DNA of 63,853 nt, filler included, from Cystobasidiomycetes sp. EMM_F5 (lineage: Eukaryota): assembly GCA_051047955.1 (NCBI GenBank). It is 7 parts of 7 records of this genome, joined end to end, with 100 filler letters (N's around TTAATTAATTAA, not from the genome) between each part and the next. Parts side by side here need not be neighbours in the genome. Positions count along the whole stretch, not along the records: positions 23,326 to 32,538 come from JBPGPT010000079.1; positions 32,639 to 41,455 come from JBPGPT010000080.1; 5 more parts are not named here. One strand, 5' to 3'. The notes beneath the pieces are model-generated. The model had not been told where the DNA came from. It ran no database searches and saw only the letters and a list, made by a program, of their open reading frames with translations. Positions within the stretch are counted from its first letter, which is position 1, and every line of letters starts with the position of its first letter. Positions 323 to 61,861 of the stretch are shown piece after piece. The translations under genes were made by a program, and so were the position numbers.

Positions 323-576
323 TGTGAGTCATCCTACTACCTGAACACCTGCGGGGCCTGACAGTCCGAAGAGAAGTGAGGAGTTCCGAAGTCCGCGAAG
401 TGGGCGCCAATATACCAAAGAGTCCTGTGTATAGGAGGTGCTCACGTAACGTGGCTCATTGTTGTATAATACCGAGAAGTACGCGGTATACAGTGGAACT
501 GCTTACTTGTGAGGCATAATGCCTGGACCTGCAGTCCGAAGTAGTCCGAAAGACTTCGGTGAGAGCTCGGCTCACA
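323..576 (-). mobile_element. Solo LTR of the Ty3/Gypsy family in contig 3
   Basis: Inverted termini TGTGAG...CTCACA. Flanked by AAGCT (318-322) and GAGCT (577-581), a 5-bp TSD with one mismatch. 527-576 closely matches 23326-23379, the LTR end next to the PPT of element 1. Contains CCGAAGT/ACTTCGG. Confidence 0.8.
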
Positions 577-13912: not shown

Positions 13913-14012
13913 NNNNNNNNNNNNNNNNNNNNNNNNNNNNNNNNNNNNNNNNNNNNTTAATTAATTAANNNNNNNNNNNNNNNNNNNNNNNNNNNNNNNN
14001 NNNNNNNNNNNN
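13913..14012. other. Artificial contig spacer N44-TTAATTAATTAA-N44
   Basis: Six-frame-stop linker. Identical spacers at 23226-23325, 32539-32638, 41456-41555, 49376-49475 and 56934-57033. Confidence 0.98.
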
Positions 14013-21488: not shown

Positions 21489-23225
21489 TAATCTCTGGGA
21501 GGGAAAATCAGGCTTGTGAGCAGGGTTGACGATGTTTGGCCTCCGGACAGCAACATCTCCCGCCAGACTGTCGTACGAGCAACAAATCCCTGTCAGCCAT
21601 AAGCCGGCCTAATGGTTTCACGGTGCTCACACATCGAATGCTTGAAGATGAGGTCGTATCTTTTCGAGCCATGCCACTGGCCGACGCGCTCGCGATGCGT
21701 GCTCCACTTGAACGCGAGCTCTCGGACCATACACCCTGGCAGCGTGGTCTGCTGCGTAAGGTAGGTACGGATCCTCTCCATTTGCAAACCGTATGTAATC
21801 AATGCCAATTGCTTTGCCAAGTTCGGCTTCCTCCTCGCTAAGGACATCTCGCATACACCCTGCCCCGCATAACGGTCAGCCGACATGAAGAAGGAACAGC
21901 AAGCATACGAACCGAAAGCAAACATGTAGTCCATCGAATGATGAGCGAATTTACCACGACCCCACGCATTGTCCCCTGTACCGAGGCAGATATTAGCTTG
22001 ATTCTCGCCCCGACTGTCATCGCACATACATTCTGAACAATGATCCCAATGATACACGAAGAAGTTATTTGACCGATGGTTGTTGGCACTGTAATATGCC
22101 GGCGCAAAGAAAGCGATGTCCGAGACCAGAGCTTCAGCAGCCAGAAAATGCTCTTCCGATGTCATGTGCTCCGTTATAGCATACTGCGACAGCGTGTCGC
22201 TTACAATCTCTTCAGGCAGATGCTTGTCGATCATTGCAATCAACTCGTACGTGCAGAGCTTTTCCTGTACGAGCTCTGGCATGAAGATGATGCCTTCATC
22301 TATGAGTATGGTGATGTAATTTCGCATTTCAGCAAAAGAATGAAGAGGAGGCATTCGGCTCTTACGACGGCAGTCTCCCATCATTATCCGGCCTTTGAAG
22401 TCGTATCGTAGGCTCGGATACTCGCACAGCCGAGGAATGCGCTTGCCTTCGCCCAACAAGAAGCCATCATCGCACGGCGAGAAGGCAGCCACGCTGACAC
22501 CGTTTTGGAGAGGACTGGTGCATGCGGACAGATAGTCTGACGGTATGCGCCTCAATGCGGCCAATCGTTGAGCAGGCGGCAGATTGGTGTCTATGTCGCA
22601 GATCCTGAGCAGCTTATTGTAGATAACCTCGTACTCCTCCTCGGTGTAGATACCGCAAACAGGCAGCATCCCGCTCATGAGGATAACATTTTGGAACAGG
22701 ACATGGTCCGCCTTAGTCTGCAGTAACACATCTGCACTGGCGCCGCCGGCGCTTTGACCGAATACTGTCACATTGGCTGGATCCCCGTTAAAACTAGCGA
22801 TATGCCTGTTGAGCCAGCTTAGAGCATTCCGGATGTCCCTGACAGTTTGATCTCCTTTAGCGCAGGCCACATAGCGAAGCTGCAACTATCAACGTACCAT
22901 AATCCCCAATTCCCGTTGAGCTCTCCGCCATTATCGGTCTTTATGTCGGCACTGGCCAAGAATCCGTAGAACCCCACACGAAAGTTGAGATTGACGATGA
23001 TGGTCGGTCTCTCAATTTCGCTGGACAAGCTTGCCAAAGGTCGACCATCTACTATGGAGTCTGTGTTGCCACAAAGGAGAAGCGATGCATCGTCGTTAAC
23101 TACATTTTACAGACGCCGGACCAGTGCATCTCTTACAGTTAGCAGAGCCCCATGTAAAAGCACCACCGTGAATGTAGACCAATACAGGAAGGCTCTTCTC
23201 AGCATGCTCGCCTGGCGGAACGACA
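21489..23225 (-). CDS. Type-B carboxylesterase (alpha/beta hydrolase), 5' end lost at contig edge; 3' end approximate
   Basis: VLVYIHGGAF; IIVNLNFRVGFYGFLAS; GNWGLW; FNGDPANVTVFGQSAGG (GxSxG); AHHSMD. Confidence 0.85.
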
Positions 23226-23325
23226 NNNNNNNNNNNNNNNNNNNNNNNNNNNNNNNNNNNNNNNNNNNNTTAATTAATTAANNNNNNNNNNNNNNNNNNN
23301 NNNNNNNNNNNNNNNNNNNNNNNNN

Positions 23326-23379
23326 ACCTGAAGTCCGAAGAAGCCCGAAGTGGAGACTTCGGTGGGAGCTCGGCTCACA
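23326..23379 (-). repeat. Start of the 3' LTR of element 1 (TGTGAGCCGAGCTC...)
   Basis: Begins TG immediately after the PPT on the minus strand; matches the solo LTR end at 527-576. Confidence 0.8.
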
Positions 23380-23390
23380 TTCCATCCCCC
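23380..23390 (-). other. Polypurine tract GGGGGATGGAA of element 1
   Basis: Purine run abutting the LTR TG. Confidence 0.75.
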
Positions 23391-23655
23391 TAGAAAAGCT
23401 GAGTCCATATGACGAAAGCGTATGTGTGTAAACGTGTATATAGACCAGTTTCAGAGCTGTAGAAGCACTTTGGAAGTCACCGTATTACGTCCGTTGAACG
23501 GTTGTAGACTCCGAAGTGGCACGATCGTACTTCGAGAACAAAAAATTTTTGTCCGAAGTGGCGGAGGCGGGTTGTTTAACAACAACAACACCAACAGCAA
23601 CAGTGAGTTGTGTTTCGGTTTGTGTCGACTTCGTTGTGCTGACACTTCGTGGCAG

Positions 23656-25330
23656 ATGGCTCCATCCAAGCGACAATTTGCACAGGCTGCGGCCTCCAAC
23701 ACCGAGATGCGATTGCCAGGTCGCATAACAAGATCTGGTGCTTCTAGGAATCTGGAAGTGCCAATGGCGACTGTGAGTTCATTTTGTCAACTTCAAGCTT
23801 GCGCTGAAGTGGGTTCGCAGGGACCGTTTTCCGGTTCCGGCAGTCCTCGCGGCAGCTCGCCTGCGTCGACGATTGAAGAAGCACCGGAGGCTTCGCAGAC
23901 CTTGCAGGAGGCTGCAGCACCGGGTGCTGTCGAAGAAGCGGCTGGTCCAGCTGAGATTGGCGAAAAAGGGACCGAAGTAGGTTCCGAAGTGGCCGAAGTG
24001 CCTGCCGAAGTAGGAACCGAACTGGTTCCCGAAGTAGCTGGTGGACCGGCTGTTGAAGGAGAGGCGGCCGCCAACGACGTTCTGGATATAGCAGATCAAG
24101 ACGTCAACAACGTTGAGGCTGGCGAGCCGATTCATCACGCCGAAGATGCCGGCCTGCAGCTGGCTCAGCAAGAGGAGCAGGCGCCTGGCGGTGAACTGCC
24201 AGAGGAGGATATGCAGGGCCTCCAGATTCTGCTGGGCGGCGTCGTCATTCCAGGCGCAGCGGCGCTCGGTCCGGGACCAGCTCGCATAGTGGCTGGCAAG
24301 AGGGTCGACGGGGCCAGGTGCTCCAGGTGCCTCAAAACCGGAGTGCCAGAGCGCCTCTGCTTCCCGAAGGCTCCAACAGCGCCTAAGGGCTTTGCCAACG
24401 CACCGGCATGTTGCATGCGTTGCTCTTTGAAAAAGGAGGGCAAGCAATGCGAAAGTAGGTCCGAACTCGAGCAATACCAAGTATTAGCTGACGTTTGTTT
24501 CAGATCCACCTACTTGGGGTGACGGCGAGTTCGGCGCCGCAGCGTACAAGCTTGTGCGCGAGGAACTGGTGCAGTTCCTCAGTGAGTTTGACTTTGACTT
24601 CGGGCTGCGAAGTGGATCCGAAGTTGATCCGAAGTGGCCCGAAGTGGGTCGAAGTACGCGAAGTGACCCAAACTGATGTACTTTCGTCTTCTAGAGCCCG
24701 CGACAGATGCTGAGGGAGGTGCCAACGCGCCCGAAGCAAGCGGATCGACAGCCGTGAGGCGCCAATCAGGTGAGTAGTTGTACTTCGGTCGCGGAAGCTG
24801 AAGCTAAAGATGAAATTAGTTCCTCGACGAAAGTCGACTACGCCGGCTACACAAGTAGTCGCAACTCATCGCCCGGCTGGATGGAAGAAGGGCAAGAAGA
24901 GGGCCGCTCGACAGTCCGACGACGAAGAGGAGCAGCAAGAAGAAGAAGCTTCTTCGGAGGCAGGCAAGGAGTATGATGAGGACCTCGCTCCTCTAGGCGT
25001 CGGACCCAAGACTGGGGCACAGGGAAGGAAGCGACCCCGGATGGGCTTTGTCCCGAATGCACCTCGCCCTGGTGGGCCGGCCCGTCTCGCCCAAGAGAAG
25101 TGGTCGTCACGCGGACCGCAAAATACGTCCATGACAACGAACTGGTGTCGGCCGGGTTTAGTAGGGCCGCACCTAATACCGAAATGGAAATGGCCACCGC
25201 CTTGCAAGTCTTGGCAGACGAGCGAAGCTTCACTGGCGATGCCATTTTGCTCCAGGTTCTATCTCGAGGACTGAAAGCGGCGTGGGACGAATTCTGGCGC
25301 CTTTGGGAAGGCATGAGTCAACCCGAGTAA
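23656..25330 (+). CDS. Antisense accessory gene of element 1; spliced, acidic low-complexity protein with Zn2Cys6-like motif
   Basis: Introns 23773-23820, 24455-24503, 24582-24694 and 24770-24819 (plus 23603-23655 before the ATG) have GTRAGT/GTAGGT donors, branch-like CTRA sites and YAG acceptors. They join an open frame ending at 25274; a frameshifted alternative tail ends at 25330. Motif C-x2-C-x9-C-x17-C-x2-C-x8-C; basic NLS-like KKGKKR and RKRPR. Confidence 0.75.
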
Positions 25331-25731
25331 TGATCGGGCGGGTGGATGGGTTTTTCTGTTTTGTTTTCTTGATGTTGTAAACGTTTTGTCTTGTAATGTT
25401 AGGGGTTTCTTGACGAATGTTGTATTTTCCAGTAATTAGTTTCATTTCCAGAACGAATGTGAGTCTTTTTCGGTTGACCAGAGTGATTGAGCGAATTGAG
25501 TCTTGATGATTGAATGAGTCTTGAAGATGAGATGAAGTTCATTGGTGTGGAAGTGATGCGAAGGGAAAAAAGATGTTCTGAAGTGGATACGAAGTGGAGT
25601 TGAAGTGAAAATCTTGAGGAATGAAGTAGTCTTGACGAGTCCAAACGAGTGTATAGATGAGTAAACGGTTATTTCTTGAGGGTATATATACGTCCAGTGA
25701 GTTTTTTTTTGAAGGTTTGGTGTACTTCGGT

Positions 25732-28543
25732 CTACTTCGGTAGAGCCGAAGTGGTCCGAACTGCGGCCGAAGTGGAGGGAACTTCTTCAGTTCTCTTGGT
25801 AAGCCTCCACTCACGTACTGCAGCAGGGCTATCCTTGTTAATGACACTAACAGGCTCCCATGACGGATCGGGGTAGCCTTCCCAGTGACATTCATATTTG
25901 CGAATAGGTTTCTGGGTCTTTTCGTCCATTATGAGTGCTTCATTGGTAATCTTGTCAAGCTTCCAGTACATGTCTCCATCGTCGTTCATACGAGTTGGTC
26001 CTACACGCTGAGGCTGTTCTCGGTCGGCAACGGAGTTCGGTTCCGGTTTCCGAAGTAGTTTCAGAAGTGAAACAGGAAAGGTACTGTGTTTTCGATTGAA
26101 AGGAGGAGTTAGTAGTAGACGAGCAGCATTATCGCCGATCATCTTTTCAATGACAAATGGTCCTACAAATGGGTCTTTTAGTTTTGAACTTCCCACAGTT
26201 CCGAAGTGCCTTGTCGAGAGCAGCACTTCATCTCCAGCAGCGAACTTCGCGGCGACATGTGAAGAATCCCAGCGAGCTTTGTGAGCTTCAAATGCTCCTT
26301 CAACAACAGCATCGTGAGCTCTGTCACGCGCGTGTTCTATCATTGAAGCGATGTTCTCAGCGCTAGGGTCGACTTCGACCGAAGTGGAGATGGTTCCCGC
26401 TATAATTCCAAAAGGAGACTTGGGAATCCATCCTCGCTCCAAAATGTAGGGAGCTTTGTTGGTTACAGCGTGCGGTGTCGAATTATAAGCGTACTGAAGT
26501 GCCGGAAGTAGGTCCACCCAGTCGTGCCTGAATCCTTCTTTGTCTCGATGTTCAAGACCGAAAGCACAGTATCTACGGATCATATCGACCAGTGTCTGGA
26601 TAATTCTTTCAGCTAACCCATCAGTCTGTGGATGATGAGCTGTAGACATGTTGAGTTTGACTCCCAGTCTTCTTTGGAGGTACTTCCAGAAGTCCGAAGT
26701 GAACTTCGGGTCTCTATCCGAGATGATGATCCGAGGAAAGCCTACGTCAGAGTAACAGTGTTTCCAGAAGACAGTGGCGACGTCTTTGGCGGTGGCTGTA
26801 TCCCGAAGTGGCAGAAAGCGAGCCGACTTGGTCGCTCTGTCACATATAGCCAGTACGCTGTTGAATCCCGAAGTGGCCGAAGTAGGAAGTGCGGTTACGA
26901 AGTCCATATGAATGATGTCCCAAGGCCTCTTCGGGTTCTCAATATGCTGGAGCAATCCTGCTTGCTTACCTGTGGTACGTTTAGATAGTGCACAAGTAGT
27001 GCATGTCTTGCACCATGTCTCAACGTCGCTGTTCATATCAGGCCACCAAGCGTGTTGCCGAACTCGTTCTAGAGTTCGGTCAAATCCGAAGTGCCCCGAA
27101 GTGAGCTGGTCATGACAGGCAGCGATGATCATCTGCTTTGTAGGAGTGTCTCCAATGCAGGGAAGTGCAGATACACCTTTCCGAAGATGTAGAGCATCGT
27201 CGAAGAGGAAGAACTGCCCACTTCGGAAGTACTCGAGTGTACTTCGGGGAAGTCCGACTTCGGCTGCCTGTTTGGTATCTTCGGTTTCACTTCGAAGTGC
27301 CTCTCTAATGCGAGCTAGACGCGCATCAAGGTCTATTCCTGCCTTGATAGTGGCATCTAGATCGTCGTTGAGTTCGGCGATGTTGATGGCGTAGATAACT
27401 GCAACGTTATCTGTCAGTTCGGCAGCGGGATTACTCACATCATTGGGTAATGCGCATCTGCTGAGTCCATCAGCATTCTTATTGGTTACACCAGGTTTAT
27501 GGTGAATTGTCATTTGTCCCCTGTGCTCTTGGATAGCCAATTGCCAGCGTAACATATGTCGGTTGGGGTTCTTGACCGTCATTAACGTCTGAATTGCTAC
27601 GCAATCAGTGTATACTGCGAAGGTAGAGCCATCCAGGTAATAATAGAGCTTCTCTAGAGCCCAGATTAGTCCTAAGCATTCCAGCTGTGTTGCGGCATAG
27701 CGTTCTTCTGCCGGGCGGAGACGTCTGGAGATGAAAGCAATGGGTCGTTCCTTGCCTTCTTGAATTTGTGCAAGCTCTGCACCCAGTCCTTCAAAGCAAG
27801 CGTCTATATACAGCCGAAAAGGCTGATTCCAGTCTGGCATTGCTAGGATTGCGGGATCTAGAAGGGCTTTCTTCGAATCTTCGAAGGAAGTCTGACAAGC
27901 AGCGGTCCATTCCCATATAACATCTTTACTGAGCAGTGAGGACATAGGACGGAGTATTTTAGCCAGATCCTTGATGTGCGCTCGGTGATAATTGATAAAT
28001 CCCAGGTACGCCTGAAGTGTCTTCAAGTTCCGAGGGGCTGGCCAGTCCCGAACTGCAGCCAGTTTGTTATCATCGATAGCAAGATACAAACCTGATACAT
28101 GCCGTCCTAGAGCGATGAGATCTGAGCATCCGAAGTGGCACTTCGGGATCGAGACAGTGAACCCGGCCACTTCGAGTGCACTTAAGATTTTCCGAAGTGA
28201 CTCGATGTGCTCTTCAAAAGTCTTGTTGAAGATGAGGATGTCGTCAATATATACTATAGCCCATCCTTCCTGAATATACTTCCCTAGCACAGTGTTCATG
28301 GCGTGCTGGAAGTGTACAGGCGCGTTCTTCAGTCCGAAGGGCATGCGTACGTACTCGTAAAGTCCGCGGTACGTAGTAAATGCGGTATATTGAATGGAAT
28401 CCTCGTGTACCCAGCATTGATGGAAGCCTTTATTCAGATCCAATGTTGTGAAGTACTTAGCGTCTTTAAGTAATGCTAAGGTTTCCTGAATGCGGGGCAA
28501 CGGATAGACGAAGGCCTTTGTGTAGTCATTCAAAGCCTTGTAG
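25732..28543 (-). CDS. pol: Pol of element 1: reverse transcriptase, RNase H, integrase, chromodomain
   Basis: YPLPRI, LDLNKGFHQ, MPFGLKNAP, YIDD, YIDAC, HDQLTSGHFG...CTTC, HMDFV, ISDRD, DGLAER, GPF, YECHWEGYPDPSWEP. Confidence 0.93.
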
Positions 28544-31500
28544 TTAGTAGGGTTAGTAGGGAGAGTCGCGCCTTTTCGCCTTTATAGACCATGACAATGG
28601 GAGAGGAGAACTGACTCTTTGATGGTCGAATAACTCCTAGTTTGAGTAGGTCATCGATGATTATTGAGATGTCCTGTTTTGTCTTCGGCGAAGTGGGGTA
28701 AGGAGCGGCTCTTAGCTTTACCGGTATTGGGTCTGGTAATTCAACTTCGATCTGTAGAGGTGGCATCTTGCATTCGCCAAGCTGCCTGTCTCCAAAAGCA
28801 AACGCCATCTTGTACTTAAAGAGTACTGCTTTTATAACCCGAAGTTGATCCGAAGTCAGCCCCGAACTGAACTCGGCCTTCCGAAGTGCAGTTCCGAAGT
28901 CGTCTTCTACGAGAGCCATTACCTGTAAAGGATTAGCTGTGGTTACCTGAGACGTTCCCAACGCATAGCGGTTTGGGTTTGTCCCAATCTTGAGCCAACG
29001 GCCTCGAGCGGAGAACAGGTTGAATCCGTATCTGTTCATCACATTGGATCCCACCAGGATCTGTACTCCTGTAGTTGGTAGGTCTAGTACGGTGAATGAT
29101 GCCTGAATTCGAACACTACCTCGCGGGTGTGGGAAAAGCAGAGGTGTCAGATACGTTCCAATAGTCTGAAGTCGGGAGCCGAAGGCAGTGGCTACGGCTT
29201 TGGCTCCGATGATGGTAGTGACATAGCCCGGATCCAATGATTCAAGTAGTGACTTAGAGATCACAGAGATTGATGCACCAGTATCGAGTAGTACCTTGAT
29301 TGGTTTGTTGCATACTACTGCAAGTACTGTCGGAAGTACTCCGAACTGGTCATCCGAAGTGGTCTTGACGGGCTGTAAGTCTATGATGCGGTGCGGAAGA
29401 ACGGTGTTATTCAGCATACTCATAGCAGCCTCATCAGTCAGTGCTACTGGATCATTAAAAGCCCTAGTCTTCTTTGGCGAAGTGCGGACCGAAGTGGTCT
29501 CGCCAACTTCAGAAGTGAAGTGAACTTCGGGCTGAAGTTCCGAAGTGGAAGTTGCACTTCCAGTAGTATCCTCTGCCCTGCATAGAGCCGCAACTGTGGC
29601 TAGTTGGTGCTGAAGAGTCTCGAAGTCACCATCGTCGCGGTCCCAGGGTCCTATTTCAGGATACATGGTATTGTTGTCGTCGGTGTCGAGAGTTCGGACC
29701 GCATTAATATGGTAGACTACTTCGTCCACGGGATAGTCGTCGTAGTGACCATCTTCTTGGTCGTACTCGTCTTGAGCTGGTTCCTGTTGATCCAGTTGTT
29801 CGTCCAGTTCGTCTTCTTCTTCGGGCACTTCAGTAAGTGCATGGACACTTCGGTTGGGGCATTCTGCCTTAGTATGACCCGGCTTCTTACATTGGAAGCA
29901 GAGTCTACGTTCCCGAAGGTCATCGCGTTCTGCCTGACTCATCTGTGGTCTGAACGAAGAAGCCTTCTTCGGTTCCGAAGTGGCCTGCTTGGAAGAAGCA
30001 TATCGCTGCTCCGAAGTAGACTTATCCGCACTGGAAGAAGAACTGTAAGCCTGAGGACGTTGTGTAGCTCTTACTGAGTGGTTATTAGACCTCTGCGGAG
30101 GAGCTGGCCGCGTCTCTCGCCGAGAAGTCAGGTCCGAAGTGCGTCCCCGCTCTTCGTGCCTGGCGTTCTGCTGAAAGAGAGCGATAAAGTCCGTAAGCTT
30201 GCTGATACCAGGAACGAGTGGCTGTATTACTGTAGCTAGTACTGCTGGCGACACTTGATCCAGAAGTTCGTAGCACATGTCGTGAATACCTCGACCTGGA
30301 TCCACAGTTCGTGAAAGTCTGAAATATTCATTGCAGAACTTCGTCGGATCATGTTCGCTCTTAGGGAAACGGTAGCCAGCCAGCTTATTACGCTGTCTTC
30401 GTTTCCAATCTGGAGTTTCGAAGTAATCTACGATTTCTTGCTTCCAGTCTTGCCATCCGATTGGAACATCAGGATCAAGGACTCGGGTAGAGTACCAAGC
30501 CCTAGCTCTTCCGGTAAGTAGTTCGGGAAGGAGTCCAACTATCCAATTCTCGGGGACATTACCGTAGAGAATCCTAGTGTCGATGCGTGTAAACCAATCT
30601 TGATGGTTGCTTTCTGGATGCCCGTCGTAACTCGGAAGATCACTGGCTTTAGGCTGGTTGGGTTTGATCTTCTGAACATAGGACGTCCCATCAGTGTATA
30701 CCTCGGCCTCTGTTACTTCCGGGACTAGTATTGGATCTTTAGCCAGGACTGGAAGTACACTTCGGCGGTTCGGAAGTAGGGCGGGCTCAGAAGTGGCCCG
30801 AAGTGGTACTGAAGTGGGCCGAAGTGGTACTGAAGTGGGCTGAAGTGGCACTTCAGGTCTTCCCGAAGTGAATCTGACTTCTGAAGTGTACTTCGGCAGA
30901 TTTTCAGGCCTTGTCCGAACTGGAGGTGCAGGCGCAAGTGAAGCCAAGGTTGGTTCAAGCTTAGACCGATGGTCGTAAAAGATGTCTCTTGCATCTCTAT
31001 AAGCAGCTCCGGCGGCTTGAAGTTCTCCAGTAGTGTATGCTAGTGCCTTGACAACTTCTTGAAGTGTCGTAGTGACTCTACCGAAGCTTTCTACTTGTTG
31101 CTCCACCTTTTGAGCTAGCTGTTCTTGTCGATGCGTGTGCCAAGTATTTGCTTCTATCATGACATCGACACTGTTGCCAAACTTGCGAAGTAGTCGCTGC
31201 AAGTCTTGGGGTGGAGCGTGGGGATGACTAGGATGAAGATTCGAGGAAGCAGCAACCGGCTCGCTAAACGCAGGAGACTTGGGAAGCGCCGGTTTGAAAC
31301 GAGGATCTTCCATATAGAACTGCTGTGGCTCAACAAGAGTGGGGAACCATGGGCGGAGCGGCGAGCGGAGAAGCAAGCTCTGGTCTCCGGGGTTGTTTAC
31401 CTTTGTCCTGAGTTGAAATAGCAGGTGTGGGAGACTGTGGCTCTTCCAATCCCAAGTTGTTGTCGGGTAAATCAAAAAATTTACTAGACGTTTGAGAAGC

Positions 31501-31710
31501 CTCGATAAGGGCGAGTGCTTCTGGTGTCGCCATCGTGTTAGGGTAATGTACAACCCGACTGAGAGGCGGAGTGTACTGATTTGCCTGTGGCAGAGTAGAT
31601 GTACTCTGTACCGGAGTCGATTCTCCAGGTACTTCGGGTACCAAAGGGAGGTACCTGAATCGACGGGTGGGTAGTGGTGTTCCCAGGGTGATGGGAGTTC
31701 TTGAAGCCAT
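28544..31710 (-). CDS. gag: Gag-protease part of element 1 (frameshifts near 31343 and 28550)
   Basis: MASRTPITLG start; LTGRARAWY capsid-like region; CFQCKKPGHTKAEC; LLDTGAS; the RT N-terminus (IRPSKSQFSSPIVMV) is in the same frame. Confidence 0.88.
30790..30857 (+). repeat. 21-bp tandem repeat CCGAAGTGGTACTGAAGTGGG within gag
   Basis: About three units; encodes PLQPTSVPLRPTSVPLRATSE. Confidence 0.8.
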
Positions 31711-32119
31711 AGTTGAGATCTTTAGTAGACCTCGCGCTACCAGGTGAAAGCCTAGTAACCGGTAGGTCGAAGCTGAAGTGCACTTCGGTGGGATCCGAAG
31801 TGGTTCCTGGGAGCCGAAGTGCAGAGGCGAGACTTCGGTGTACCGGAAGTACTAGCTAATCTGAGGATCTTGTACTAAATCAGCTATGGGTCAAGGTAAT
31901 AGGAGCTTACAATGGTAGATCTGGATTGCCGAGATCTAGAAGTGCCTATTGATGTATAATTTGTACTTCGTCTTGGCCGAAGTACACTTCTCAGACTTCT
32001 ACTTGGTAGAAGTGGGCGAAGTACGATATTAATTATTTAATATCGTTAAAATACCGTTAAATATTATAATAAAAACTTATTATAAAATTCCGTATTGATT
32101 GGTGCTAAGGAAAGGTAGC

Positions 32120-32439
32120 CCGAAGTGGAACCGAAGTGTACTTCGAGTCCCCGAAGTGGATCCGAAGTGGGGCCGAAGTGCAGTTCGGTGGCGTTGGGCG
32201 AGCCGAAGTGCAGTTCGGGTCCGAAGTGCGGTCCGAAGTAGAAGTACCTTTCCGAAGTGAGGATAATAGAAGAACTGGATAGAGTATTGCTTCTAGAATG
32301 TACTCAAAGAAGTATTACGCTTAACCAGAAGTGGATATCGATTGTATTGAAGAAACCGAAGTGCACTTCGGGGTCCGAAGTGAGTCCGAAGTGCGGCCGA
32401 AGTGACCGAAGTGTGCCTTAAGTCGAAGTGGCACTTCGG
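32120..32439 (+). repeat. Clusters of CCGAAGT heptamers in the 5' leader of element 1
   Basis: CCGAAGT at 32120, 32131, 32151, 32162, 32173, 32203, 32221, 32233, 32252, 32356, 32375, 32386, 32397 and 32406; ACTTCGG at 32365 and 32433. Confidence 0.92.
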
Positions 32440-33095
32440 GCACGGGTTGTCTTCTGACAATTCAATATAAAATAGATGTAGGATCGATTGTAGATGTAGA
32501 ATACGTTGTAATATGTATTATATTAAACGTAGATGTAANNNNNNNNNNNNNNNNNNNNNNNNNNNNNNNNNNNNNNNNNNNNTTAATTAATTAANNNNNN
32601 NNNNNNNNNNNNNNNNNNNNNNNNNNNNNNNNNNNNNNTGTTTGTATGAATCGTTGAGACCAATGCCATTACCGCGTTGCCGAGGAACCGAGGCCGAGCA
32701 GGAGACCTGATGGTGGGCTTCATTTGATGACTAGTACTTCTCGAAGAGCTGGGGATTCTGCAGCGCCCGACACAAGTCTCACCATTCGACACCGAGCTGT
32801 CTCAGTCAGTCGACAAACTCACTTTGCATCATCATCATGCCTGCGCGTGGTGTCCGAAAACGGTCTCTGGCCGGATTCGCACGCTTCGCGTACAGGCCCA
32901 CACTGTCAGTATAGCTCGGTCACACGCTGAAAGGATACTCGCAGGTCTCACAAGTTACAGATGTGATACGAAAGTCTGCGCGGGCGTCACTCTCCGCTTG
33001 CTCCCAACCATATCGCCGCTTGATCCTATCGGAAGATCTCTACCAGCGTCATAAGCTATCGTGCTTTCGATACTATCTCCCTCCTTTCGACTGCG

Positions 33096-41091: not shown

Positions 41092-41569
41092 ACTGCAGTC
41101 GTCTTGCGTCCCGGCATTGGGGTATCTGTGGCTGAGGATGTCACTGGTCATGGAGCAGCCGCACTTTGAATATCTATCAATACCGTTCGCGGCGGGGTGC
41201 TGCAGGTGGAGAGCCATAGATGCGGCATCCTCGTGGAATCGTAAATGCCCAATATTGGGTAATGTCGGCCGCGCGTGTGATATCTGAGCAATCTAGCTTC
41301 TCAGGTGGCTAGCGTTGTAGCGCCATACTCTAGCCGAGCATGTTAGTAGCCGCACTGCGCACTCGTACAGCCCACTAAGTTATAAGTTCTTTTGCTCGGC
41401 CTCAGATTCTGGGGAACGCGGTAATGGCATTGGTGTCAACGATGTAAAAGCAACGNNNNNNNNNNNNNNNNNNNNNNNNNNNNNNNNNNNNNNNNNNNNT
41501 TAATTAATTAANNNNNNNNNNNNNNNNNNNNNNNNNNNNNNNNNNNNNNNNNNNNGACTGATCTGGCAG

Positions 41570-49375: not shown

Positions 49376-49683
49376 NNNNNNNNNNNNNNNNNNNNNNNNN
49401 NNNNNNNNNNNNNNNNNNNTTAATTAATTAANNNNNNNNNNNNNNNNNNNNNNNNNNNNNNNNNNNNNNNNNNNNCTAGAACCGGAAGAAGCTGAGCCGG
49501 CGGATGAATCTTGAGCCGGATAGCCGTGTGTGCCGGAGGTACTTGTCTGTCGGATCCGAAGTCTGACTCGAACAGATGTCCGGGCGTTCGGCCAGTGTTC
49601 GAGTGTGCGACAAGCGAAGATGCGGTTGTTGAGGAGATTCGGGAGTTCGAGAGCCGAAAGTTCGGGTCGGGTGAGTGTACTTA

Positions 49684-50210
49684 TGTCAGACCGTGACATC
49701 ACCCCCGTCTGTAGCTCTGAGCTCCTGCGAAGCGGTTTCGGGTGTTCGGCCGAAAATTTGCTGAATTTGGCAATACCTCTTGAAGAAGAAGTTGTACGGA
49801 ATTTTCGATCACTTTTTCGATCTCGTGAGAAAATATGCTTCCGAATGGTACATAATAAGAAGGGGGTTCCGAAAACTCGATCGCTGACTAAGCATAGTCG
49901 TAGTGCCACCAAAACGTGGCACATTCGAAATCAAAATTGTTCCCTGATTCTCGGCGATCATTTTGGTGTACTTGGTATAGGGGGTTGTCGATCTTGTTTT
50001 AGAGTAATTCGACTTTTAGTGCCAAAAGTTGGGATATATATAGGTGGTTCATATTTGATCCTAGTACCAAAAAGTTTTTCGGGCGACCTAGCTTACTGGT
50101 CGGGTACCTGCTTAGTCATCTTTGGCAGCGGGTCACGGGTTCGAGTCCCGAAGCACGAAATTCTTAAGACCGCAGAAATTCGCCAATTTCGGATTGTGGA
50201 CGTCATCACA
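49684..50210 (-). repeat. Probable LTR of element 2
   Basis: On the minus strand it begins TGTGATGAC just after a purine-rich AGGGGAGG (50217-50224) and ends ...TCTGACA. No second copy in the window confirms the left boundary. Confidence 0.5.
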
Positions 50211-50639
50211 GCGGTGCCTCCCCTGGTGTGATGACTAAGCGTTCGGGTTGTCGGGTTTCCTCTATCCTTAAGTCCGACTAGACCGAACTGTGATGCTTTG
50301 CCGGAGATATCCGGTAGGGGGAGGCCATCACAGTGACGTCGAAGTCGGATGGGTAGAGGTCGAGTCGAGCGAACGGGATGATCGTACCTTGCAGCCGGTC
50401 GAGAGGACGTACCTGGTCTTGGACCGGGGAACCTCTTTGCCGAAAGTTACAAGGTGTTCGGGTTCGGCTTTCGGGTTTCGGGTGTTCGAGTGGAAGAATT
50501 GGAATCTTCCAAAGTTCGATCACGGAAGGTTCGATTGGGATTGGGTTTATAAGGCGCGCAGCTTGCTTTCTGCTCTTGTCTTCGTTCCAACCACTTCATT
50601 TGCCACCAACTTTGGGTTTCGTGCCATTCGAAAACAAAG

Positions 50640-51502
50640 ATGTCCGAAAGTTCGAAGCCCCAGGCTAAGCCGGTGGAGTACCATATGGTCGACGGAGAGA
50701 AAGTCAAGATGGCTACCGCATGTCCGCCATGTGTCAATGCGGGCGAGACATGTTATCAAGCGAAAAAGGATGTCGGTAAACCAGGCGAACCGCCTTGCTA
50801 CAGATGCAAGGGCTTGACGAAGGGGCCGAAGTATTGTACCGGTTCGAAGATACCCCCAAAGAGTCCGTCGAAGGTCATCGACATAGTCGATAGTGATTCG
50901 CCTATGGGTATGTCCGAACGTTCGGGTCGAAGTTCAGTTCGGTCTGATGTTATATTGTAGAAGTTGCCTCGAAACCTAAGGCAGTAAAGACCACCAATGA
51001 TGCCACGCCAAAAGCATCCACCGTTCGTATGGCAGAGACTGCAAAGTACGAGCCTCTGGTGCCTTTGGCGGTTCCGGCGATTCGTTCTTGGCAAGAACTC
51101 CTGAGCAAGACGCCTTCGGCCTCCTATTTGATGTCCGAACGTAGCTTGGACACGAAGGTTCGTAGTCTTTGCACTGCTTTGTTCAACAGTACCGCTTGCG
51201 GGGCCGACAATGCTCGAACAGTCAACATTATCGAATGGCTCGAGTTCGCTTTTGCCAAATCGAAGGCAGGTGTTTCGGTTGCCGAAGTGCGACAGGCGAC
51301 CGAACAGCACGAAGTGCAATTCGTCAAGGTCGATAAGGGAAAGAAGCGGGATCTGTCGGAGATGAATGAAGGAGTCCAAATCGAAGAATCGGGTACCGCG
51401 CCCAAGGTACAGGTTCTTGATGTAGAGGCTGGACCTTCGGGAACTTCGGGTGTCGCCGATACTTCGACTAGCACGGAGAATGGGGAGAGTTCGGAGAAGT
51501 AA
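50640..51502 (+). CDS. Antisense accessory gene of element 2; 269 aa, Zn2Cys6-like motif, one intron
   Basis: TATAA at 50548. CPPC-x6-C-x14-CYRC-x9-C. Intron 50908-50960 (GTATGT...CTGAT...TAG) joins the two ORFs in frame. Confidence 0.78.
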
Positions 51503-51708
51503 GGAGGGATGGATTGATATCGGGAAAACGACAAGCATCCGATAGATAGACTTATGTTAAAAGCCAAATAAGGATTAGGCTCTAGTCCACCAAAAAAATA
51601 GTAGTGCAATATAATTATATGTTTGTGACCCGGCTTATGGCCGCGGGTTTCCGACTTCGGGTTTCGACCGAATTTCGGGTCCGAATGTCGGACATGCACA
51701 TTGTTGCA

Positions 51709-54700
51709 CTAACGTCGAACCGCAGGTTCGGAAGTTGTTCGATGTTCCGAAGGGGCTCGCCATACTGGTCGACCACGAGTGTCACTCATAGCTCGAGGTC
51801 GCTTTCGAGGAGTCGAAGGTGTCCGAACAAGATCTTTCGGACTTGGCTTGTGTGGAAACCGAGCGTGATACTCGTCAACTACGTCGGTGAGATTGACTAA
51901 GTCGGCTGCAGGAACCCAGCTGAATTGTTCGGCTGTGTCTTCATATCCTAGCCAATCGATTCGGTACTCTAAACGGTGTTTGCGTTTGTTGATTCGGGAG
52001 TCGACGATGTCTCGAACAGCATAGACTTCTTCTTCGAGGTCGACAGGACCAGGAGGTTCAACTGTACGGCCTTCAATAGTACTTTCGGGTATAGGCCGAA
52101 GTAGAGCTACGTGGAAGACAGGATGGATTGCCGAAAGTTCTGGAGGTAAGTCCAGTTTGTATGCTAGTTCGGAGATCTTTTCTGAGACGGTGAAGGGTCC
52201 GATGTACTTTTCGGAGAACTTGCGAGTTGGTCGAGTTGTTCGGAGGTTTTCCGTCGAGAGCAGGACTTGCTTTCCGACTTCGATGGTATGTTCACTCCTT
52301 TTTCGGTCGGCATAATGCTTCTGATCCGCTTGTGCGTTAGACAGTGTGATTCGAATACGGTCATGGAGCTCTTGTAGCTGAAAGGCATATCGATTGCCTG
52401 GTCCAGCAGTGGCGCCGGGGACAACCGACAAAGATGGATCGAATCCATAAATTGCACGGAACGGTGAAGTACCTGTCGATGTATGGTCTGCGTTGTTGTA
52501 CGCAAATTCGGCTAAGGGTAGCCATTCGGACCAGTCGTCTTGCTGGTAAGCGCAATATATGCGGATGTATTGTTCGAGAGTCTGATTGACTCGTTCGGTT
52601 TGACCATCCGTTTCGGGATGGTAGGCTGTAGATAGTTTGCGATTGATACTGAGTCGAGAGCATAAGGCTTTCCAAAACTTGGATACGAACTTCGAGCCGC
52701 GGTCGGACACGATGTCGTCGGGTAAGCCGTGCTTCGAAAATATGTGTTTGAGAAAGAGAGTCGCTAAGTCTCTCGAAGTAGACGTAACTACTGTTGGAAT
52801 GAAGACTGCCATCTTAGTGAAACGACAGACAACGACAAGTATGGAGTCGAAATTATCGGAAGCGGGTAGCTTTTCGATGAAATCCATGGAAAGTGAAGAC
52901 CATGGTCGTTCGGGAACGGGTAAGGGCTGGAGAGGTCCGAAAGGTTTGGTCCTAAGCGGCTTGTTGCGTGCACACTTCATGCAGGTCGCAATGTAGTCGG
53001 AGACGAATTCTTTCGGGGCTCGCCAGTCGGGTCGTCATGCTTTTGACGTAAGATGCGAAGCTTGATGGCTTCATCAGCTGGTACAGCAATTCGGGAATCC
53101 AGGAGAAGTACGCCATCTTCGCGAAGGGACGGAACCAGTTTCGCGTTGGCGACATCAATTTTGGCCTTGTGTTCTTGTAAGATGAGATCTTCATCCTGTG
53201 CACGGATGAGACTGACGACGAAATCATCTTCGGGCGGTTCGATTTGTCGGACCGTCGAGATTTTGGGTGAAATGTGTGAGTGCGTAAGGAAACGCACAGA
53301 AGTTTCGGTAGAATCGAAACCGTTGACTTGATGTGACTTGATCAGAGTCGCGAAATTGTGAGGGTTGTTTCTGGCATAGGCGCCATCCCCTCCGGTAGGA
53401 TACACGTCGTCCCGACGTGACAGTGCATCAGGCTTATCGCTATGTTTACCAGGCCGATACGTAATCGCGAAATTGTAGTCGGCAAGCATTTCGGCCCAGC
53501 GGACCTGCCGTCTGGTGAGTTGCTTATTTGTCATAAAATAGACGAGTGCTTGATGGTCTGTCAAGACCTGGATGGGTTCGGACGTTGAGAGAAGCATCGA
53601 TCTCCATCGCTTGAACGCCCAGACAATAGCGAGTAGCTCCTTGTCATGGATTTCGTAGTTTAGTTCGGCTGGCAATAATTTGCGAGAGTCGAACGCAATG
53701 GGATGTAGAAGACCGTCTTCGCCATTCTGCGATAGGATGGTACCGATAGCATAGTCGGATGCATCGGTCTCCAGATAAGTGGTTGCATTAGGGTCGAAGT
53801 GCCGAAGGATAGGCGCTGAGGTGAACCTAGTCTTGAGTGACTCGAAAGCTGACTGACATTTGTCAGACCAGGTGAAAGCCGAATCCTTCTTCGTAAGCGC
53901 GGTCAAAGGCGAGACGACTTTGGAATAGTCGCGAATAAATCGCCTGTAGAAGTTGGCAAAGCCGAGGAACGACTGGACGGCTTTGACATGCCGAGGAATT
54001 GGCCAGTCGACTACGGTCTGGACCTTAGTCGGGTCCATGCGGAGACCGTTGATGCCCACAAGATAGCCGAGGAATTCGACTTCGGGCACACCGAAAGTAC
54101 ACTTGCTCGCCTTCGCGTATAGATTGTTCGCGCGCAGCAACGAAAGTACTTTTCGGACGTGCTCGACATGCTCGTCGGGGCTGGAAGAATAGACCAGAAT
54201 ATCGTCAAGATAAACAACAACGAAATGGTCGAGGTGTTCCCGGAAAACATCGTTCATGAGATGTTGAAACGCAGAGGGTGCGTTCGTCAAGCCGAAGGGC
54301 ATGACAAGGAATTCAAAGGAGCCGTATCGACAACGGAATGTCGTTTTCCACTCGTGGCCAGCAGCAATTCGCAGAAGGTGATACGCTCCACGAAGGTCGA
54401 TCTTTGAGTAGATGCTAGCTCCGCGCAGCTGCTCCAGAAGAAAGTTGATCGGCGGAAGTGGATACTTGTTCTTCTTGGTTCGGAGATTTAGCTGACGGTA
54501 GTCTATGCACATCCGCAGAGAAGCGTCTTTCTTCTTGACGAATAGCACTGGTGCACCGATGGGTGCAGTGGAAGCTCGGATAAAACCCATAGACAAGAGG
54601 GTGTCAATTTCTGTCTTGAGGGCTTGTGATTCGGCCGAAGAGGTCGAATAGATGGGGCCAACAGCTGGGATGTCAGACTCATCGAGCAGTTCGATGGCAT

Positions 54701-55390
54701 GATCATAAGGGCGGTGCGGTGGAAGGCGTTCCGCTCTGGCCTTGGAGAAAACGTCCAGATATTCGCTATACTCCGAAGGCACGACACGAAGGATATCTTC
54801 GATGTCGTCGGGATCCTCGTCAGGATCGAAAAAGAAAGAGGGGTCGTTGGCGCGAGAACGACCAGATGGTGTGGCAGGACCAGACTTCGTCATAGCTAAA
54901 TGGGAGTCGGTCGGAAGACGTGGAGAGTCCGCAAGCTCCCAGGAATCGTCTGAAATAAGGGGGAACACTAAAGTGCCTTTGTCCCAATCGAAATTCGGTC
55001 GGGCTTTTCGACACCAAGACATGCCAAGTAAGATTCTGGCAGTCGAAGGTAGGGATGTTATGAGAAGTAATGTCGGCAGCGTGGGACCTGCGACATGGCT
55101 AACCACATCGACTATGATGTACTCAGAGATGTCTTCGGCCTGACTTCCATCTACCATGATGAGAGGAATCGGTTCAGGACACGATTGTCGCATGAAACTC
55201 GGGACTAGGGTATGGTCGATGTAAGAGTCGGTGGCACCCGTGTCGATGCATGCGCTGATGATTTGTGCAGAAATCTCGGGAACTTTTACGAAGTGCACAA
55301 TGGACTTAGGCTCTGGCTGACCGTTCCGAATGGTCGAGATGCGCGCTGGTCCAGAGCGAGCCTCCAGGCGCATATGGAGCTCGCTATCTA
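51709..55390 (-). CDS. pol: Pol of element 2 (protease, RT, RNase H, integrase, chromodomain); broken near 53015
   Basis: [58 protein letters not shown]. Deletion and frameshift in the integrase zinc finger. Confidence 0.93.
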
Positions 55391-56824
55391 GTTTTTTGGC
55401 TGTGCTCGGTGAGCAGAGTCATTCGACGCCACTCGAGCTGTGCTTTGTTGAGGCTTGACCGAACAGTGGTCGATCTTGTGAGGACCGCCGCAATATGCGC
55501 ATAGTCCCTTCTCGGCACGACGTGTTCGTTCGGCATCGTTGATACGACCTTTGCTGTTCAGGACCTTGTCGAGGTTTGGTTTGCTCGAAGAAGTGTTGTT
55601 CGACTTTGGCTGGAATCGAACTTGATTGTTCGAACGATTCGGGAAGCGAGTCGAAGGACGGGGAACGAAAGGTCGATATTCTCGTTCGCGTGGAGGTGCG
55701 TCCTCACGAGAACGATGAGATCCTGGCACACTGACTGATGCACCGTAACGTCTACGGCGAAGCTTCTTGTCTCGTTCGGCTTCCCAGTAGGCGTTGTCGA
55801 GCTCGAGCGCTAGCTCCTGAAGACCCGAAAGCGTCAGAGGCTTTCGATGATGTTTGAGGTCTTCGAGAAGTCGTTCGGGAAGACCGAGCTTGAAGTGATA
55901 CATCAAGGAAGCTTGATCCCACATAACGCGAGTCTGATGGGTTCGGAAATGAGTAAGGTAAGTCGATATCTCATCTCTATCGTCCATCTTGATGTTGTTG
56001 AGCTCATGTTCGGCCGTCGCTTCGGCATTCATGTCACCGAAGACAGCGGACAGAGACTCCTTGAACAATGTCCAATTGTTCAGCATACGATATGCTTCGG
56101 GTTTCGTCTCATCCAGGATGGGTTCGAACCAATCGGCTGCAACTCCTCCAAGATACGAGCCAGCATACAGTACTTTGGCTTCGTCCGAACGGAATCGGTT
56201 CTTGTGATGAAGAAATACGATTGCGAGTTGATTCAGAAAAGGGCGGAGTTTCGCACGATTAACTCCATCGAATTTGTCAGCAGATCGTGCAGGAGGTTCC
56301 TTGAAAGAGACGACCTCGCTAGGCTTGCTTTCGGCTCGTTCGGCTCTTGCTGAACTTTGATTTACTAGTGCCTTGGCAATTGCTTTCCAGTCATCATCTT
56401 CGGATGATATTTCGAGTTTCGGAAGGCCATCGTGGTGTCCCGGGTTCTCGACTTCTTCCGAAAAATCACGAGCTGGGTCTTGAGATTCGGTTGGATGTTC
56501 TGCAGCTTCGAGGCTGGCCAGTCGAGCTGCGACTCGGGCCTCTTCGAGTTCGAGACTCTTGAGACGTCTTTGCAGTTCTCGTTCTTTGACTGACAGCTCT
56601 GCATTCTGTACATCCAGATCTACTCGTTCGACTTCAATGCGAGCCTTGCGAGCAGCGACATTCTCTTCGGTTTCGGATGAGAGATTCGAAGGAAGAGTGC
56701 TTTCGGAGATCTTCGTCGCCTGAACATTGGCGGCTCCGACTGGGAACGACGGTTGTGTCGTTGAGAGATCAATGTCGAGAAGTTCTCGATTCTTGTTGCG
56801 AGAGGTTGTGGATCTTGTATCCAT
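55388..56824 (-). CDS. gag: Gag of element 2
   Basis: KFDG...[23 protein letters not shown] (retrotransposon gag pattern); knuckle [13 protein letters not shown]. Confidence 0.9.
55391..55397 (-). promoter_or_regulatory. -1 ribosomal frameshift heptamer A AAA AAC at the gag stop
   Basis: CCA AAA AAC TAG; the -1 frame continues CTA GAT AGC GAG CTC CAT ATG CGC into pol. Confidence 0.8.
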
Positions 56825-57139
56825 GTTGACATGCGAAGTAGGTATTGGTACTAGTAAACTGTAAGGGGACGTGGCTTTGAGCTGGTTCGAAGACCGAAGA
56901 CTCGAAAGTTCGGACCCGAACTGGGATTCGAAANNNNNNNNNNNNNNNNNNNNNNNNNNNNNNNNNNNNNNNNNNNNTTAATTAATTAANNNNNNNNNNN
57001 NNNNNNNNNNNNNNNNNNNNNNNNNNNNNNNNNTCTTATCTTTTTTAGATAATCTAAAAAGGATAAATAATCGAAACATAAAAAAAAATAAGGGATCAGA
57101 AGGAGCTGAATTTTGAGAATTCAATTAATGTAATAAAAA

Positions 57140-57212
57140 GCTCTGGTAGCTCAAATGGTGAGAGCATCGGTGTGAAGTACCGAATATCTGCGTTCAATCC
57201 GCAGCGAGAGCA
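57140..57212 (+). tRNA. trnF: Mitochondrial tRNA-Phe (GAA)
   Basis: Cloverleaf; anticodon arm TCGGT-GTGAAGT-ACCGA; T-loop TTCAATC. Confidence 0.85.
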
Positions 57213-57508
57213 AAACGAATTATTTTACGTTAAAATATCGGTTTCGTCTTTTAATGTATACAGGTTTAAGCAGTCAAACAAAGGATTTGTCCTTTATAAC
57301 TATTCCTGAATCGAGTGATAATCTTTAGTACGCAGCACTTTTTCCTGTTTTAAAGTGGGGTTTTTTTTTCGCCCATTCTGATTGGTTTTCATTTTTAGAT
57401 TACAATGTTGAAATAATCTCAACAAATAAAAACAAACGATAATCAGGTGCTGGTTTTTATCCTCTGAAAAATAACTTACAATAAAGTTTTGATTTCCTTT
57501 TTCAGGTT

Positions 57509-57573
57509 TCGATTCCTTCTCAAGCTTCTGAATCTTTATAAAATAAAGATTCAGAAGCTTGAGAAGGAATCGA
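57509..57573. repeat. Perfect palindrome, 31-bp arms and 3-nt loop; member of a dispersed mitochondrial hairpin family
   Basis: TCGATTCCTTCTCAAGCTTCTGAATCTTTAT-AAA-ATAAAGATTCAGAAGCTTGAGAAGGAATCGA. Relatives near 57575, 58890, 58990, 59335, 61280 and 61510. Confidence 0.9.
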
Positions 57574-57754
57574 GTTATAAAGCTTCTGAATCTTTATAAA
57601 ATAAAGATTCACATGCTTGATAAGGAATCGAAATGAGTCCATTGCTGAGTTTGTTGAACCTCACAGTAAGAATCAGTAAAAAGAATCCGAAGCTGCGAAA
57701 TAAAGACGCCGTGGATTAAGTAGTAGTAGACGTTAATAGACATACATTAAAAAA

Positions 57755-58735: not shown

Positions 58736-59092
58736 AAACATCCCTTTTTTCTTAGTTTAAAGTATTTACATTAAAAACATTTGTACCGATTATTTTCATT
58801 CGCAGCGCCTGATTATTGTTTTTTTTTTATTGGTTGAAATTGTTGCTGAGTCAGCAAGTTATCAAGCATCTTCGCAGCTCCGCTGCGAACGAATATTTAT
58901 AAAATAAAGATTCGTTCGCTTTAATATATATTCTTGCGAATACGCCAGAATAACCTTGATAAAGCAACAATGGAATCTAAAAAGGAATCGAGTTATAAAG
59001 CTTCTGAATATTTATAAAATAAATATTCACATGCTTGATAAGGAATCGGAATGAGTCTTAACCGTATACAAACAGTCTTCACTGTAAGACAC

Positions 59093-61737: not shown

Positions 61738-61861
61738 TACAAATCGAAAAAAAAACCTTTTCTTTTTTTCGACGTAAAGTAACGTATAAGTAGATTATTA
61801 AATAACCACTTGTGCTTATAATGCATAAGTGAGTAATTATTTTAGGTTTTTTTTCATAAAA

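Follow-up and report, generated by a model that had tools for sequence, protein, structure and literature searches.

A nine-base word saturates a predicted Ty3/gypsy chromovirus of a Pucciniomycotina yeast and recurs throughout its coding sequence

Introduction

Why should a seven-base word, CCGAAGT or its complement ACTTCGG, recur dozens of times within one mobile element, protein-coding sequence included? The question is raised by the contig at 23326-32538 of the window, by which we mean the whole 63,853-nucleotide stretch of DNA from Cystobasidiomycetes sp. EMM_F5 (GCA_051047955.1) analysed here. Judged by its predicted domains, this contig holds an almost entire Ty3/gypsy element, probably a chromovirus, from a Pucciniomycotina yeast; it lies on the minus strand (element 1). 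A sequence-only reading had described the heptamer as saturating this element, often in palindromic pairs, and had argued from its frame independence that selection acts on the nucleic acid rather than on codons. The excess is confirmed here as that of a nine-base word; it is real and unusual, and its mechanism is unproven. The strand of the element, its position on a stand-alone contig, and an antisense accessory gene are features absent from the earlier reading.

Excess of the word over chance expectation

The motif was counted as exact CCGAAGT or ACTTCGG on both strands. The whole window holds 88 copies, compared with a mean of 7.1 and a maximum of 15 in dinucleotide shuffles, none of 100 reaching 88. 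The element 1 contig accounts for 73 of the 88, with 54 CCGAAGT on the plus strand and 19 on the minus strand, while 500 dinucleotide-preserving shuffles of this contig gave means of 0.82 and 0.48 and maxima of 4 and 3, respectively, or about 1.3 copies in all. Motif density is 7.9/kb in element 1 and 0-0.94/kb in the other six contigs; the sequence-only reading had itself proposed a count against host contigs. The dominance of CCGAAGT on the plus strand also holds, yet that strand is antisense to gag-pol; the element's own sense strand is the minus strand, so its dominant word is ACTTCGG. Gag and pol lie in two open reading frames (ORFs):

28530..31721, minus strand: ORF1, stop to stop; gag with CCHC knuckle, protease (PR), and start of the reverse transcriptase (RT); 18 exact motif copies
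25732..28581, minus strand: pol ORF2; C-terminal part of RT, RNase H, integrase (IN) zinc-binding domain and core, SH3, and a sub-threshold chromodomain; 19 exact motif copies

Together they hold 37 exact copies, compared with about 6 under codon-preserving shuffles (1000 per ORF). ORF1 has 13 sense and 5 antisense copies (shuffle means 1.9 and 1.6, maxima 9 and 7), and ORF2 has 13 and 6 (means 2.1 and 0.6, maxima 7 and 4). Resampling of the coding sequence with uniform codons predicts about 2.0 sense and 1.8 antisense copies, while 26 and 10 are observed, and resampling with the codon usage of element 2, a second retrotransposon of the window described below, agrees with this result. All three reading frames are used by the sense copies (8/1/4 in ORF1 and 7/3/3 in ORF2), as had been claimed. 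The range of codon- and dinucleotide-preserving shuffles had been named as the ground on which the claim of saturation should stand or fall; the counts lie far beyond it, and the five antisense copies of ORF1 form the only class that falls within the codon-shuffle range.

One-mismatch variants, also said to be recurrent, number 95 in element 1 compared with about 24 expected, and the variant types are alike in both orientations (TCGAAGT 5+6, CTGAAGT 12+3, CCGAACT 8+9). Iterative refinement led to a 9-position site, S-C-A-C-T-T-C-G-G (CACTTCGG), of about 12 bits with random flanks. The corresponding position weight matrix (PWM) finds 126 sites in element 1 (91 sense, 35 antisense) and 16 in contig 6; contigs 1, 2, 4, and 5 have 2-8 each, and contig 7 has none. 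Likenesses to the ETS site (CCGGAAGTG), the B-box (GGTTCGA), yeast CDEIII (TCCGAAAGT), and Ppr1 TTCGG half-sites are given no weight as evidence.

Effect on the Gag-Pol proteins

When ORF2 was aligned with 16 homologous proteins, copies were found at conserved peptides through codon choice alone (PKC-HFG, TSG-HFG, PKF-TSD, and HFG). At other sites the residues themselves differ: TSA-TSG replaces the [PMLK]-[GA]-G of 15 of the 16 homologues, PLR stands where homologues have P/A-T/C/N-H/F, and SLR, TSV, and LLR fall at positions that vary among homologues. The motif-encoded peptides quoted in the sequence-only reading are present. Tripeptides encoded by the motif amount to 23.5 per 1000 residues in ORF1 and 14.8 in ORF2, compared with 0.8-6.7 in 14 of 14 homologues, which include those at about 60% identity and serve as a protein-level stand-in for a comparison of orthologous codons. 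Since all 14 are without the peptide signature of the motif, the saturation is, on this protein evidence, family-specific and evolutionarily recent, and has reshaped Gag-Pol.

The excess over shuffles, the use of three frames, and the replacement of conserved residues together argue that the pressure acts on the nucleic acid and not on codons. To this extent the earlier claim stands; the pressure that it put down to selection may instead be a mutational or copy-choice drive.

A scan of a viral collection with pol found no DNA of relatives. At least 120 unrelated contigs from metagenomes contain the triple pattern CCGAAGTG-N2-4-CCGAAGTG-N2-4-CCGAAGT, usually at a period of 12 nt. None of the 119 metagenome loci among the matches listed encodes a relative of gag, pol, or the antisense proteins (tblastn, E<=1e-5), and none of these 119 is saturated over the whole locus; they are presumably coding tandem repeats of other organisms.

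Arrangement of copies along element 1

Motif density falls from 26.7/kb in the retained part of the 5' long terminal repeat (LTR) to 19/kb in the antisense gene's introns, about 6/kb across gag-pol, and 3.5/kb in the antisense gene's exons. The features that carry motif arrays, or adjoin them, are as follows:

31745..32538, minus strand: 3' portion of the predicted 5' LTR, truncated at the contig end; 21 exact motif copies
32356-32439 and 32120-32258, minus strand: two U3 motif arrays, about 18 copies, spacing roughly 11 bp
32020-32100, minus strand: AT-rich TATA-like block, just downstream (in element sense) of both U3 arrays
30790-30852, minus strand: in-frame array of 21 nt x3 in gag, encoding PTSVPLR repeats
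24582..24694, plus strand: motif-array intron of 113 nt, period 10-11, about 4.5 units

Beyond the AT-rich block, R/U5 holds 5 further copies, and the copies at 23345, 23356, 23511, and 23553 lie upstream of the ATG of the antisense gene. Among the 72 gaps between neighbouring copies, 24 do not exceed 15 bp (mode 11 bp) and 43 do not exceed 40 bp, giving 30 separate clusters; the longest motif-free gap is 942 bp. Tandem Repeats Finder returned 18 rows, mostly motif-bearing arrays with periods of 9-13, 21, and 30, including arrays in one exon and one intron of the antisense gene, and the tandem run that had been reported within 24582-24694 is present.

The 24 close pairs are oriented 16 ++, 4 +-, 3 -+, and 1 --. 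Random assortment of copies of which 74% are '+' predicts these orientations, and a special selection of palindromes was therefore rejected; the three palindromes singled out earlier (at 32356, 26694, and 28130) do exist, but such pairing is no commoner than random orientation predicts. Long-patch copy-paste was also rejected, as the recurring strings are only 14-20-mers, mostly two motif units. The spacers of seven 11-bp pairs are weakly alike, and no extended flank is common to copies beyond the 9 positions. A UUCG-tetraloop hairpin, C(UUCG)G, was rejected because the flanking bases are not complementary.

Structure of element 1

The window is made of seven contigs, longest first, spaced by six identical 100-bp linkers:

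13913-14012, 23226-23325, 32539-32638, 41456-41555, 49376-49475, and 56934-57033, no strand: artificial linker, 44 N + TTAATTAATTAA + 44 N

Positions 23326-32538 are exactly one whole contig of 9,213 bp with a linker at each end, and since the linkers are artificial, its neighbours in the window are not its genomic context. In Pfam, element 1 matches RVT_1 (8e-28), RT_RNaseH (4e-29), Integrase_H2C2 (3e-21), and SH3_Tf2-1 (1e-09); rve reaches 30.5 bits against a cut-off of 32.6, and zf-CCHC and Asp_protease_2 are likewise under cut-off, as is the Chromo match at the C-terminus of the integrase (E 0.0037, 17.6 bits, cut-off 25.1). The domain order gag(CCHC)-PR-RT-RNase H-IN is that required of Ty3/gypsy elements (Metaviridae). 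Among named homologues, the nearest are Pucciniomycotina retrotransposon polyproteins (from Rhodotorula, Phenoliferia, and Puccinia; 43-45% identity), and homologues without a name reach 58-64%.

ORF1 is connected to ORF2 only by a frameshift within RT (28530-28581), which points to a defective copy or to an indel in the assembly at that point. The first ATG (31710, MASRTP...) is out of frame with the long gag ORF, in which Met first occurs near 31325; the mismatch (31330-31721) would reflect a second frameshift or else an upstream ORF of 127 codons. No LTR pair is found inside 23326-32538, the contig ends falling within both LTRs (54 bp and about 794 bp). Three terminal features were read from the sequence:

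23326..23379, minus strand: opening 54 bp of the predicted 3' LTR (TGTGAG... in sense), truncated at the contig end; one inverted motif pair
23380..23391, minus strand: putative polypurine tract, sense AGGGGGATGGAA, abutting the 3' LTR
31730..31742, minus strand: putative primer-binding site, sense TGGTAGCGCGAGG, 2 nt past ...TTTCA

The site TGGTAGCGCGAGG presumably matches a tRNA. A related family is represented in contig 1 by a fragment whose end matches the start of the element 1 LTR at 85% over 54 bp:

323..575, minus strand: solo-LTR-like fragment of 253 bp, TGTGAG...CTCACA; 3 exact motif copies and variants

Antisense accessory genes

Between pol and the 3' LTR, on the strand opposite to gag-pol, each of the two elements has a predicted gene:

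23656..25330, plus strand: predicted antisense accessory gene of element 1, with GT-AG introns; frame open only when spliced
23773-23820, 24455-24503, 24582-24694, and 24770-24819, plus strand: GT-AG introns of this gene, at least four
50640..51502, plus strand: predicted antisense accessory gene of element 2; one intron at 50908-50960; 269 aa

The element 1 gene is the source-annotated 451-aa model P0122, and the deposited model has one more intron near 25100-25165. Introns in the antisense orientation would survive retrotransposition, because genomic RNA could not splice them. In the element 1 product, the N-terminal half is acidic and the C-terminus helical; it also contains a six-Cys region, a predicted helix, and stretches rich in K/R. 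Its Cys spacing is x2/x9/x17/x2/x8, and the element 2 product has C-x2-C-x6-C-x14-C-x2-C-x9-C near its N-terminus, a pattern identical to that of a 92-aa metagenomic protein, P0124, found by phmmer. The products of the two elements have little in common beyond the six-Cys region, in which the Cys, one Arg, and two Gly line up with each other and with P0124.

Homology and exhaustive phmmer searches with the antisense proteins returned only P0122, P0124, and two weak repeats, and no Pfam family was matched at threshold. The six-Cys spacing is near, yet outside, the fungal Zn2Cys6 pattern C-x2-C-x6-C-x5-12-C-x2-C-x6-8-C, and Zn_clus gave no match even at E<=10. The sole family to which both antisense proteins point is DUF3716 (PF12511), with scores below its gathering score of 22 bits (P0124 10.9 bits, E 0.44; P0122 8.8 bits, E 2.1); both sub-threshold alignments cover the Cys region. 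ESM Atlas gave leads, at 0.77-0.82, to clusters with DUF3716 in 28% of members, to be taken as leads only. TRP28 (PF04195) had no match in the antisense proteins, and their position and orientation are those of Retand, a plant element discussed below. A PDB profile search with these proteins returned chance matches only, and AlphaFold2 models had pLDDT values of 44.5 and 50.6, too low to be used.

Element 2 and the other contigs

Contig 6 carries a second retrotransposon:

49476..56933, minus strand: element 2, a distinct Ty3/gypsy chromovirus; RT 35% identical to that of element 1

Its chromodomain passes the cut-off (1.5e-08). Element 2 is rich in TTCG[G/A], with 235 TTCG+CGAA compared with about 58 expected and 3.5x the level of host-like contigs, and its CpG observed/expected ratio is 1.26. 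The excess of CCGAA is about 2-3-fold over codon shuffles, the flanks of the word are not fixed, and the sense-strand bias is strong (CCCGAA 24:3). A TTCGG core is therefore common to both elements, but it is opposite relative to pol, the sense strand reading ...TTCGG in element 1 and CCCGAA in element 2.

Three other regions were noted. Positions 57034-63853 are AT-rich (34.6% GC), with dense short inverted and direct repeats and tRNAs Phe-GAA, Ile-GAT, and Leu-TAA on one strand, and look like a mitochondrial fragment. The ends of contig 1 (688-1432 and 13156-13912) form a 758-bp direct repeat pair of 93.5% identity, between which there is no ORF of 250 aa or more and no pol match; they may be LTRs, from an element that is degraded or non-autonomous, or else result from an overlap in the assembly. 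Contig 2 ends with a carboxylesterase-family ORF (21593-22885, minus strand; COesterase 3.7e-28) that runs into the linker.

A protein-binding DNA site as the favoured explanation

What could maintain such a word? The explanation that we tentatively favour, and hold to be plausible though somewhat less likely than not, is that a protein binds the word as a DNA site with a CGG core, and that the site has multiplied because its activity rises with its density. Three steps in this are inferred: a protein ligand, recognition of DNA and not RNA, and selection for site density. A compact PWM with random flanks looks like that of a protein-binding site. In coding sequence both orientations are enriched (26 vs 2.0 and 10 vs 1.8), which a signal on sense RNA only does not predict, and the same variant spectrum in both orientations suggests tolerance of the PWM rather than strand-specific mutation. 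The spacing of the arrays by about one helical turn and the reversed core shared with element 2 also support a DNA site. Zinc-cluster factors including Tea1 reportedly respond nearly linearly to how many CGG half-sites there are, without a grammar of spacing or orientation (PMC10250231); Tea1 is listed as a Ty1 regulator, with a site near Rap1 and Mcm1 sites in Ty1's internal regulatory region (PMC10968565). Therefore, site number as such could be valuable.

Under this explanation, the double-stranded CGG-core site would act as the element's upstream activating sequence (UAS) or enhancer unit, and the U3 arrays just upstream of the AT-rich TATA-like block would be promoter-proximal enhancer sites. 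If the response scales with site number, each extra copy would pay. Copies may have spread by tandem duplication where this was tolerated, i.e. in the LTR, the intron, and acidic and linker peptides in frame-preserving multiples, and elsewhere may have been fixed via codon choice or tolerated residue changes. The entire 9 kb could then recruit the factor, either for activation or to hold chromatin open in an element with a putative chromodomain.

Several points weigh against this explanation. A DNA site does not predict the strand bias, which is 54:19 overall and 42:7 for the 8-mer, and which in coding sequence goes about 2-fold past codon opportunity (26/36 vs 0.53 expected, p = 0.02). Base composition is not the cause of the bias: the two words are alike in being C2G2, and masking leaves the GC skew at 0.117. 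The density of CCG/CGG is only 1.16x that of host-like contigs, so that the extended word is enriched and not CGG itself. The analysis covers one copy of the family, the binding protein is hypothetical, and a density of about 6 sites/kb within gag-pol has no precedent known to us.

Alternative explanations

The strand bias is what would be expected if ACUUCGG were instead a signal on the genomic RNA, bound at many places by Gag/nucleocapsid or by a host RNA-binding protein, so that copy-rich RNAs are better packaged, exported, or protected and the word accumulates by replicative drive, like dispersed viral packaging signals or bacterial uptake sequences. The sense bias (54:19; 8-mer 42:7; PWM 91:35) exceeds base composition, the whole transcript is evenly covered including the 3' region (longest gap 942 bp), the word of element 2 is strand-biased too (CCCGAA 24:3), and Gag has a CCHC knuckle, though sub-threshold. 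However, antisense-oriented coding copies are also enriched about 5-fold, the TTCGG core has the opposite sense in the two elements, the densest arrays sit at an enhancer position upstream of the TATA-like block, the flanks form no C(UUCG)G stem, inverted pairs occur at chance frequency, and Rfam gave no match at E<=1. An RNA signal is thus unlikely in our estimation, though it deserves serious consideration. The same bias would also follow from same-strand copying without any function, if RT slippage and short-patch copy-choice (or gene conversion) seeded copies where few bases matched and purifying selection on the proteins removed only the harmful ones. Consistent with such a drive are the 18 Tandem Repeats Finder rows, mostly motif arrays and including the in-frame 21 nt x3 in gag, the clustering (43 of 72 gaps <=40 bp; 30 clusters), and the family-specific words, which the nearest homologous proteins do not reflect in a peptide signature, so that the spread is recent. 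Isolated copies at conserved peptides would nevertheless require several precise point changes, copies have no common flanks beyond 9 positions, and the TTCGG core in two unrelated families is left unexplained. To our knowledge no mechanism giving such density has been described, which also counts against a functionless drive, and we regard it as doubtful and on balance improbable.

The favoured DNA site could be read by the element's own product: the antisense six-Cys (zinc-cluster-like) protein would be a nuclear DNA-binding protein that recognises the CGG-core 9-mer spread over the whole element. The homologous genes and the different TTCGG-core words of the two families would then be co-evolving protein-site pairs, and the pairs could label DNA as 'self', whether to activate it, to protect it against silencing, or for cDNA handling. 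We consider this element-encoded recognition quite improbable. A by-product of host hypermutation or methylation, whereby a process like repeat-induced point mutation (RIP) at TpCpG, or CpG decay, leaves or creates TTCG-rich words, was also considered, one study having reported TpCpG as the hypermutation target in transposable element-like repeats in 4 of 4 Pucciniomycotina species examined (PMC3318451). TCG lies within the motif, and TTCG is the most enriched NNCG context in both elements (2.2x and 3.5x host). Nonetheless, the process turns TCG to TTG, while here TCG stands at 20.8 and 36.2/kb compared with 18.7 in host-like contigs, and TTG is not raised (16.9 and 17.4/kb vs 19.4); the TCG depletion with TTG/CAA excess that defines a RIP-like pattern is not seen in element 1. 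Moreover, CCAAAGT/ACTTTGG, the product that such decay should leave, is less frequent than any other variant (0+1), and a context-level mutation bias cannot fix nine positions; the one repeat pair available, in contig 1, shows no TCG-centred pattern and is uninformative. This explanation is largely refuted and very improbable. As for an assembly or sequencing artefact, the contig is small and unplaced, with frameshifts inside RT and possibly gag, but the copies are in frame within long ORFs with recognisable domains, the same protein sequences occur in a public protein collection (P0001, P0121, P0122), and related copies are present in contig 1, so we give an artefact next to no weight.

Comparison with known systems

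Literature searches, subscription literature not being covered, found no description of the motif or of over-represented motifs in retrotransposon coding frames. The closest likeness to the favoured explanation is to the tandem enhancer/UAS repeats of LTR U3 regions and the internal enhancers of Ty1 (PMC10968565): as there, element 1 has arrays of its word upstream of a TATA-like block, further copies downstream in the coding region, and a CGG triplet core. Unlike them, the word of element 1 continues past the promoter and the first kilobase through all of gag-pol, at about 6/kb and in all frames, with the proteins altered. The half-site density mode of zinc-cluster factors (PMC10250231) offers a reason for selecting the number of CGG cores in any spacing or orientation; however, that work concerns bare CGG in S. 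cerevisiae promoters, while element 1 has a fixed 9-position word and a CGG density that is barely raised. RIP-like TpCpG hypermutation (PMC3318451) is known from the same fungal subphylum and the motif holds its target trinucleotide, but TCG is enriched here and not depleted.

Plant Retand elements (Tat-lineage) have antisense ORFs with a probable DNA-binding domain (TRP28) and family-specific tandem repeats in the region from pol to the 3' LTR (PMC11963269). Element 1 is similar in its 2.35-kb pol-to-3' LTR region with an antisense gene and family-specific short repeats, an arrangement found in two families. It differs in being a predicted fungal chromovirus and not a plant non-chromovirus, in having spliceosomal introns, in encoding a six-Cys region and no TRP28, and in having repeats beyond that region. 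DUF3716 genes are reported to be accessory genes of the Zymoseptoria class II transposon REP9 (PMC8232023), which offers a parallel for a Cys-rich fungal domain of unassigned function as a transposon accessory gene, although here the DUF3716 matches fall short of threshold and the gene is carried by a retrotransposon.

Bacterial DNA uptake sequences and Chi occur genome-wide at about 1/kb, and are driven via a sequence-specific binding step. They resemble the word of element 1 in being over-represented in genes, in all frames, with a peptide signature, an orientation bias, and occasional inverted pairs. The word of element 1 differs from them in being confined to one eukaryotic mobile element, at 8-14/kb.

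If the word is a binding site, element 1 would be a clear example from nature of a mobile element that gives up protein sequence in exchange for site density; two families having homologous antisense six-Cys genes, this would also be a tractable yeast system for retroelements that recruit or encode factors keeping them active. A functionless drive would instead be a new route by which reverse transcription homogenises sequence. Short regulatory repeats are commonplace in LTRs; a word that recurs about 100 times across promoter, introns, and three frames of gag-pol, even altering conserved residues, is not.

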